A program made the translations under genes and the position numbers. Under the pieces are notes generated by a model. The model was not told where the DNA came from. It saw nothing but the letters and a program-made list of their open reading frames with translations, and searched no databases. This document shows, one piece after another, positions 32,542 through 33,759 of a stretch of DNA of 64,000 nucleotides. This stretch comes from a virus (Duplodnaviria; Heunggongvirae; Uroviricota; Caudoviricetes). Location of the stretch: IMG/VR virus record IMGVR_UViG_2713896905_000004, positions 31,599 through 95,598 of that record, one strand, 5' to 3'. The first letter of the stretch is position 1; the number at the start of each line of letters is the position of its first letter.

Positions 32542-33759
32542 ATGCCAACTGAATATGCTCGCGACAACCTTGGTCGCTATCAGACCGATGGATTAAGTGC
32601 AAAAGACTTTAACAAGGTCTTCGATCTTATCCGTAAACAGCAGCGTCAGAATCGGCGAAACGCGCGGCGTACACTCACCCCAAGGATTATGGGGATGCGT
32701 AACCGCGAACTTGAGGCATTCCTCAGCCTTGGGAAAAAGAAAGATGGCACCTACTTTACGCCCGAAGATATACGCAGTTTCAACACCTCAAGGCAGGCTC
32801 ATAAAACCAAATTCAAGAGCACGGTACCCGGCATTACCTATGCTCAGCTGGTGGCGCAGTCCACCAGCATTGATATAAAACGCGCTAACAACAAAGTTTC
32901 TGATGGCACAGGGATCAAAGCCGCGACATTTCTCGGGCTAAAACACAACCTTGCATTGATATCTGTTAATGCCTCGGATGAGTCTGTCCACCAGCATCAC
33001 CGTGTCAGAATTCGATTTGAGGAATGGGATAAAGCCGTTGAGGATATTGCTGAAGACGGTGCGAAAAAAGCCCGAATCGCTGCCGATCTCTGCAAGGGCC
33101 GGGTATCTTTCGACTGTGATTGTGGACGCCATCAATACTGGTATCGTTATATGGCCACGGCTGGTAACTATGCTGTCGCGCCGCCAAAAGAGTATGCATT
33201 CCCCAAAATCCGCAACCCTGATCTGACTGGTGTGGCTTGCAAACATGTTTTGCACGCTATGACGCGTTTTCAGTCTCCCACATGGCACAAGGCCATCATT
33301 ATTGCCCTGGAAAAAGCAGCTGAACAGGTAGCCTTCGGCGATGACAAGCGGAAGACAACAACCTATTTCAAAGGCGAACTGGCTAAATCGCTCGCGCGCA
33401 ACCGGACAACAACGACGGATCAGGCTAAAGCTGCGCGTGAGTATGAGCTGTATCTGAAATCTCAGGATGCATTAGGCAAAAAACTACGCGCCAAAGATAG
33501 CGCCACGGACAACGTTCGCCGGTTGTTAAAAAAAGCTCGCACCACGGCAAACAGGAAGAATGCCGAACTAAAAGCATCGCGGGTGAGGGAAGCCCAGGCT
33601 CGCGCTGAAGCCGACGCTCTCAAAAAAGCCCTGCAAACGCAGGCGAACAACCTCATAAAGTTTTTCATGAGTCAGGGAATGGACAAGACCGCTGCCACCG
33701 CGCAGGCGCGAAGCATTCTTGAGACACAAATTAACGAAGCCCGTAAACGGAAAGGATAA
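32542..33759 (+). CDS. hypothetical protein with SWIM-type zinc finger
   Basis: CDCGRHQYWY...GVACKHVLHAM; basic coiled-coil C-terminus. Confidence 0.5.
   Translation: MPTEYARDNLGRYQTDGLSAKDFNKVFDLIRKQQRQNRRNARRTLTPRIMGMRNRELEAFLSLGKKKDGTYFTPEDIRSFNTSRQAHKTKFKSTVPGITYAQLVAQSTSIDIKRANNKVSDGTGIKAATFLGLKHNLALISVNASDESVHQHHRVRIRFEEWDKAVEDIAEDGAKKARIAADLCKGRVSFDCDCGRHQYWYRYMATAGNYAVAPPKEYAFPKIRNPDLTGVACKHVLHAMTRFQSPTWHKAIIIALEKAAEQVAFGDDKRKTTTYFKGELAKSLARNRTTTTDQAKAAREYELYLKSQDALGKKLRAKDSATDNVRRLLKKARTTANRKNAELKASRVREAQARAEADALKKALQTQANNLIKFFMSQGMDKTAATAQARSILETQINEARKRKG

Follow-up and report, generated by a model that had tools for sequence, protein, structure and literature searches.

The virion of phage P1, a classic genetic tool, has now been modelled almost completely. 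The near-complete cryo-EM model places gp26 as the baseplate plug, gp7 as the hexameric neck stopper, gp24 as the terminator, gp6 as the hub, and gp5 as the spike (PMC12810830), and gp24 was likewise built as the tail terminator by cryo-EM (PMC10304247). The P1 tape measure is Sit, a protein of 120.6 kDa (PMC9024508; PMC12810830) that lies in the lumen and is invisible in symmetrised maps (PMC12810830). The product of gene 25 is nowhere mentioned in the near-complete virion work (PMC12810830) and also has no place in an independent tail-baseplate preprint.

In the P1 virion proteome obtained by LC-MS/MS, gp25 was represented by 2 peptides covering 8.4% of the protein, clearing the two-peptide threshold and matching the six-copy gp7 in peptide count. 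HHpred gave no match above 50% for it, and its function was left as 'incorporated into the virion or co-factor for assembly' (PMC9024508). The prohead protease also gave a weak signal in these data, which according to the authors may reflect incomplete removal (PMC9024508).

The P1 annotation describes genes 7 and 25 as 'tail stability' and gene 24 as 'baseplate or tail stability'; for gene 25, the phenotype is cited here as annotated in GenBank and as given in later work. In P1-type phages, whose tails are contractile, gp25 is conserved and serves in morphogenesis. It was defined genetically by amber mutants and is the sole product of the 26-25-7-24-6-5 operon with neither a structural position nor a recognised fold.

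Identification of gene 25 in a P1-like phage-plasmid

The DNA analysed, hereafter the window, is a stretch of 64,000 nucleotides from an IMG/VR virus record, and sequence comparison showed that the whole of it is a P1-like phage-plasmid. The ORF studied here is intact, with an ATG at 32542, 405 codons, and a TAA stop ending at 33759, and a GGGA Shine-Dalgarno sequence lies 7 nt 5' of the ATG. Its product is 402/405 (99%) identical to P1 gp25, the three differences (A86S, D168E, and T383A) being conservative substitutions, and it matches PHROG 1722, the sister PHROG of which is PHROG 4315, over residues 1-405 (E 2e-227). At the DNA level, the ~4.5 kb around gene 25 share 98.5-99.1% identity with P1, P7, RCS47, SJ46, and other punaviruses (98.9% with P1 for the gene 25 region), and the P1 record names this ORF gene 25, 'gp25, tail stability'. 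Judging from the sequence, the ORF is almost certainly gene 25 of a P1-like phage-plasmid. An earlier note on this DNA had described a basic protein of 405 aa at 32542-33759, and the coordinates, the length, and the basicity (pI 10.1) were all correct.

The 152 nt upstream are 100% identical to P1 (AF234172), so that the late promoter LP26 and the C1 operator O26 are present in the window (Table 1). Gene, operon, promoter, and operator are thus the same as in P1, and nothing of substance differs between the two gp25 proteins. The earlier note had also placed the ORF at the start of a baseplate gene block. This holds only roughly: gene 25 comes second in the late operon 26-25-7-24-6-5, and this operon combines components of the baseplate (26, 6, and 5) and of the neck (7 and 24).

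An antisense ORF of 116 aa (32938-33288, minus strand) lies inside gene 25 and has 'homologues' in related loci. These are not evidence of a gene, because the sense strand is conserved across the zinc-finger region.

Table 1 Features of gene 25, its expression signals, and its operon in the window.
Feature	Position	Strand	Basis and remarks
C1 repressor operator O26	32066..32082	+	P1 annotation and upstream identity to P1
Late promoter LP26, drives the 26-25-7-24-6-5 operon	32107..32125	+	P1 annotation and upstream identity to AF234172
Gene 26, baseplate 'plug', T4 gp53-like	32155..32532	+	Stop 9 nt before gene 25 ATG; PMC12810830
Gene 25 (gp25)	32542..33759	+	405 aa, pI 10.1; 402/405 identical to P1 gp25 AAQ14053; PHROG 1722 full length
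N-terminal basic helical region, aa 1-91	32542..32814	+	AF2 helices 20-40 and 74-90; pI 10.8; conservation
Central alpha/beta domain, aa 92-268	32815..33345	+	Four strands, helical hairpin insert aa 162-185, split SWIM-type finger (probable)
First ligand pair (predicted), C192-D-C194	33115..33123	+	End of strand 187-192 (AF2); invariant in 33, 48, and 54 sequences
Family-specific 38-residue insert, aa 195-232	33124..33237	+	'GRHQYWYRY.AT.G.Y...E..FPKIRNP.L.G'; Arg/Lys/aromatic-rich
Second ligand pair (predicted), C233-K-H235	33238..33246	+	N-terminus of helix 234-242 (AF2); invariant
C-terminal basic helical region, aa 269-405	33346..33756	+	Poorly conserved; length varies among relatives
Gene 7, hexameric neck 'stopper', very acidic	33763..34491	+	ATG 3 nt after gene 25 stop; PMC12810830
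Gene 24, tail terminator	34478..35263	+	P1 annotation; PMC10304247
Genes 6 (hub) and 5 (spike), operon end	35265..36906	+	PMC12810830

A large family of basic proteins with a conserved gene order

An exhaustive HMM search (E<=1e-3) showed that the gp25 family is large, with 656 representative clusters at 50% identity and relatives of 320-450 aa. Basicity is universal in the family (median pI 10.05, range 9.3-11.2), and the net charge is positive in nearly every N-terminal, core, and C-terminal part of the relatives, even where the sequence is not conserved. Among cultured phages, homologues were found in punaviruses, D6, Cronobacter phage JK004, Acinetobacter phage ABMM1, and Xanthomonas phage Rb1.

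A search for related loci with a diverse alignment returned P1 clones only, and distant single queries were used instead. About 30 diverse IMG/VR contigs (60-97 kb) share the order (terminase)-(ref)-mat-26-25-7-24-6-5-(upfC-upfB)...capsid-sheath. The window protein belongs to this family both by its full-length PHROG match and by its place between genes 26 and 7. The family size, the kept gene order, and the constant placement between the plug and stopper genes show that gene 25 belongs to the core of the tail and neck module of P1-type phages and is not an accessory gene.

In the window, the homologue of P1 mat (5557-6345; PHROG 1837, no known function) is ~26 kb away from gene 26, whereas in distant relatives it lies directly 5' of that gene, which suggests that the mat-26... 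block was split in the P1 lineage.

The labels given to this gene or region in sequence records are inconsistent, ranging from 'transcriptional regulator MvaT' and 'tail tape measure' to 'tail protein', 'tail stability protein', and 'hypothetical protein'. Taken literally, some of them would make gp25 the tape measure of the tail, or else a regulator, either nucleoid-associated or transcriptional. Some P1-like records label the 4.5-kb region 'tail tape measure', on some gene of 26-25-7-24-6-5, and 2 of the 48 distant relatives match tape-measure PHROGs; the regulator label is carried by the Rb1 homologue (5695-6774 of its locus). Yet the PHROG matches are both rare and weak (best E 2.6e-4 and 2.2e-3), and we tentatively attribute them to the basic helical tail. 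The tape measure of P1 is already assigned to Sit (PMC9024508; PMC12810830), Pfam scans of gp25 and its relatives matched no regulator family among those listed, and the gene always lies within the tail and neck operon. We thus regard a tape-measure or regulatory function as extremely unlikely; the 'MvaT' and 'tail tape measure' labels look like errors, of which the basic helical tail is the suspected source.

A gp7 homologue follows the gp25 homologue directly on its 3' side in nearly all relatives, usually with a 4-nt overlap, and is without exception very acidic (pI 4.1-4.5, net charge -14 to -40). The negative charge of gp7 is concentrated, in P1-like members, in the first 60 residues (net about -20). 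The usual overlap of the two homologous genes suggests translational coupling and possibly a charge-matched pair.

These tight, often overlapping junctions, together with the opposite charge of the two proteins across the family, would also fit a purely non-structural chaperone that keeps the acidic gp7 or gp26 soluble, or delivers it, and is then discarded. The absence of gp25 from the cryo-EM models (PMC12810830; tail-baseplate preprint) points in the same direction. However, its detection in virions cleared the two-peptide threshold (PMC9024508), and the junction with gene 26 is not always tight, with gaps of 300-3270 nt in some loci. We consider a chaperone of this kind unlikely.

In ABMM1 (4299-6546 of the locus) and Rb1 (5695-7282), the next gene after the gp25 homologue encodes a PHROG 4597 protein of 167-182 aa, just upstream of the major capsid gene. 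A BLASTP comparison of P1 gp7 with the ABMM1 ORF downstream of the gp25 homologue gave no similarity; the PHROG 4597 protein in the gp7 position could represent a stopper that has diverged very far. A role of gp25 in the head or as a scaffold, which the proximity of the ABMM1 and Rb1 homologues to the capsid gene had raised, was dropped because the genes upstream of these homologues are tail-fibre-like and tape-measure-like, and because most relatives keep 26-25-7-24-6-5 between terminase/mat and the capsid gene.

Architecture of gp25 and conservation of the CxC...CxH motif

AF2 gave a confident model of full-length gp25 (pLDDT 82.5, pTM 0.71) and a better one of residues 92-268 (pLDDT 90.8, pTM 0.86). 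In the modelled domain, three strands lead into a helical hairpin and a fourth strand, which runs up to C192; then come a helix, a long loop, and a further helix that opens with C233-K-H235. The calculated pI is 10.8 for residues 1-95, 9.1 for 96-265, and 10.5 for 266-405.

The N-terminal region holds an invariant R38 and the conserved motifs 'RTLTP' and 'LGKKKDGTFFT'. The C-terminal third is predicted to form long basic helices (294-316, 320-377, and 382-404); the C-terminal region gave weak matches only, to coiled-coil proteins, and closes, past G379, with a small helical motif that is conserved.

Three of the four cysteines of gp25 form, together with H235, the motif C192-D-C194-x38-C233-K-H235. 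These four residues and K234 are invariant in 33 relatives (40-83% identity), in 48 distant relatives (23-43% identity) drawn from the 656 clusters, and in a 54-sequence domain alignment. In both the 33- and the 48-sequence sets, the four putative ligands are the only invariant Cys or His residues. The spacer between the ligand pairs measures 37-38 residues in 10/10 members checked, and this insert is the best-conserved stretch of gp25. The CxC...CxH motif claimed by the earlier note is therefore present, and the invariance of its ligands across the relatives makes it much more than a chance occurrence.

A probable SWIM-type finger split by a family-specific insert

The motif had been read in the earlier note as a SWIM-like finger. 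gp25 shares with SWIM proteins (PF04434; human ZSWIM8, E. coli YehQ, and proteins of Achromobacter phage Motura and Burkholderia phage BcepSauron) not only the CxC...CxH signature but also its setting: CxC closes a beta-strand, C-K-H (typically 'CKHVL') opens a helix, and a small sheet lies before the finger. It differs from them in the spacer, which is conserved and family-specific at 37-38 residues compared with 5 in the first YehQ finger, in a second insert, the helical hairpin between strands 3 and 4, and in the location of the finger, within a basic protein of 320-450 aa encoded in a phage tail and neck operon. The original description of SWIM reportedly allows 6-25 residues between CxC and CxH.

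Sequence searches with the native proteins gave little. A Pfam scan of native gp25 returned no match even at E<=10, and among 33 closer relatives SWIM was absent from the 25 most frequent of 85 families, the listed families being coiled-coil noise. PDB sequence and profile searches gave coiled-coil or chance matches only, and a Foldseek comparison of the domain model with the PDB returned nothing below E 0.4. A match found by hhalign between the domain profile and the single sequence of the SWIM protein YehQ (E 0.047), in which just the 'G..C.H' half paired with the second finger of YehQ, is too weak to be taken as evidence. In the 48 distant relatives, SWIM PF04434 was the sole recurrent Pfam family, with 12 members, all below threshold (best E 0.01), any other family being matched by at most two of the 48.

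The structural comparisons were more informative. Against predicted viral structures, Foldseek gave seven matches at E<=1e-3 (TM 0.5-0.6, 155-175 columns), two of which are named 'SWIM-type domain-containing protein', from Achromobacter phage Motura (139 aa) and Burkholderia phage BcepSauron; the small phage 'SWIM-type domain' proteins matched at E about 1e-6. SWIM proteins were matched independently in two structure libraries, and the fold match includes ZSWIM8.

We then deleted in silico 28-29 residues of the insert from ten family members and repeated the Pfam scan. Nine of the ten shortened sequences matched Pfam SWIM at model positions 14-37, four of them above the gathering threshold of 19.6 bits (19.7-23.0 bits), with P1 gp25 at 15.5 bits. 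This test was devised with the SWIM hypothesis in mind and counts as supporting evidence only. The lack of a Pfam match for native gp25 can be explained by the conserved insert of 37-38 residues, which splits the finger.

Alternatively, the CxC...CxH residues could be an unrelated or non-metal-binding feature, and the structural matches fortuitous, as the spacer outside the 6-25 residues given for SWIM, the failure of native gp25 in Pfam and HHpred, and the negative Foldseek search of the PDB might indicate. This would leave unexplained the invariance of all four residues in a family with no other invariant potential ligands, the SWIM proteins retrieved from two structure libraries, the recurrence of SWIM as the only such Pfam family, and the match of both motif halves to the SWIM model once joined. 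We hold it to be very improbable.

The core of gp25 thus has, in all likelihood, a SWIM-type fold. In our reading, its finger is of the SWIM type but is split by a conserved family-specific insert, making gp25 a structural relative that fails formal Pfam membership. What stands of the earlier SWIM assignment is the ligand signature, with its invariant residues, and the fold, through the SWIM-type Foldseek matches and the insert-removal test, whereas the spacer is too long and the native protein does not reach the Pfam gathering threshold. C192, C194, C233, and H235 are predicted to hold one structural zinc.

The SWIM domains of ZSWIM8, MEKK1, and Sws1 mediate protein-protein contacts, which counts in favour of the chaperone considered above. 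A literature search combining SWIM with phage tail or virion found nothing relevant. The gene itself has long been known. In the literature searched, neither a SWIM-type interpretation of its core nor the split architecture nor the basicity throughout the family was found, and the one published profile analysis that came up, with HHpred, was negative (PMC9024508).

Possible roles of gp25 at the tail and neck

Tentatively, we favour a role for gp25 as a transient or low-copy zinc-dependent factor that acts at tail completion or head-tail joining. The split finger and its Arg/Lys/aromatic insert, flanked by the two basic helical arms, would form a binding surface for an acidic partner, and gp25 would act at this step with its neighbours, the gp7 stopper and the gp24 terminator. 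The proposed step of action is supported by the fact that the products of the 'tail stability' gene 7 and of gene 24 are now known as the neck stopper and terminator. gp25 would be a transient or low-copy, non-symmetric component, which might explain both its absence from the symmetrised virion maps and its weak MS signal.

Alternatively, gp25 could be a low-copy virion protein bound to the packaged DNA or held in the electronegative lumen of the tube or neck. It would then exit together with the DNA and serve as a pilot or as a DNA-end protector functionally analogous, though not homologous, to T4 gp2. The positive charge kept in all three regions across the family and the Arg/Lys/aromatic-rich conserved insert would suit such a function, and symmetrised maps would not show a protein that lies in the lumen without symmetry, just as they do not show Sit (PMC12810830). 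gp25 was found in purified virions with the peptide count of the six-copy gp7 (PMC9024508); however, the prohead protease gives a weak MS signal too (PMC9024508), and since that signal may reflect incomplete removal, the 2 gp25 peptides are not proof of incorporation. Pfam scans of gp25 and its relatives matched no DNA-binding family among those listed, and the classical label is that of a tail defect, not of a DNA-stability defect.

The comparison with T4 gp2, the DNA end protector, comes from gene content. T4 gene 2 has as its neighbours gene 4, for head completion, and genes 53 and 5, a gene content similar to that of the P1 operon. The phenotypes differ, as that of gene 2 concerns heads and DNA ends and the label of P1 gene 25 a tail defect. 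Homology to gp2 was rejected, hhalign giving a probability of 0.1% over 6 aligned columns, and gp2 has no cysteine. Taken together, we regard a DNA-bound or ejected gp25, the idea raised in the earlier note, as rather unlikely. A broader version, in which gp25 would stand for a hitherto unrecognised class of very basic, zinc-dependent 'split-SWIM' proteins of the neck or lumen in hundreds of P1-type myophage lineages, present in low copy on the DNA end or the tape measure, ejected with the genome, and analogous but unrelated to T4 gp2, seems to us decidedly improbable.

For the favoured role at tail completion or head-tail joining, the conserved basic insert provides a concrete hypothesis in a sizeable group of phage-plasmids that spread resistance genes. 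The conserved, predicted zinc site offers handles for mutagenesis, namely C192, C194, C233, H235, and the FPKIRNP loop. The long insert that splits the finger also shows why profile searches miss the domain, and other phage proteins that lack annotation may be missed in the same way. What is gained is annotation and hypothesis; it overturns nothing and would be no great surprise to a specialist.

Other features of the window

The window starts with an ORF of 1312 aa with a helicase C-terminal domain (27-3965, plus strand). An ORF encoding a GNAT acetyltransferase of 200 aa (4804-5409, minus strand) adjoins mat.

Between the terminase gene pacB (12705-14189) and an ORF at 10146-10997, which we take to be c1, the minus strand carries two ORFs at 11030-12708, one for a KilAC/ORF6N protein of the antirepressor type (371 aa) and the other for a protein of the Ash family (186 aa). 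To our knowledge, reference P1 does not carry this pair at this site, and the pair looks like variable cargo.

Finally, positions 1-25000 of the window are covered to 46-76% by any single P1-like record, and this arm is therefore a mosaic.
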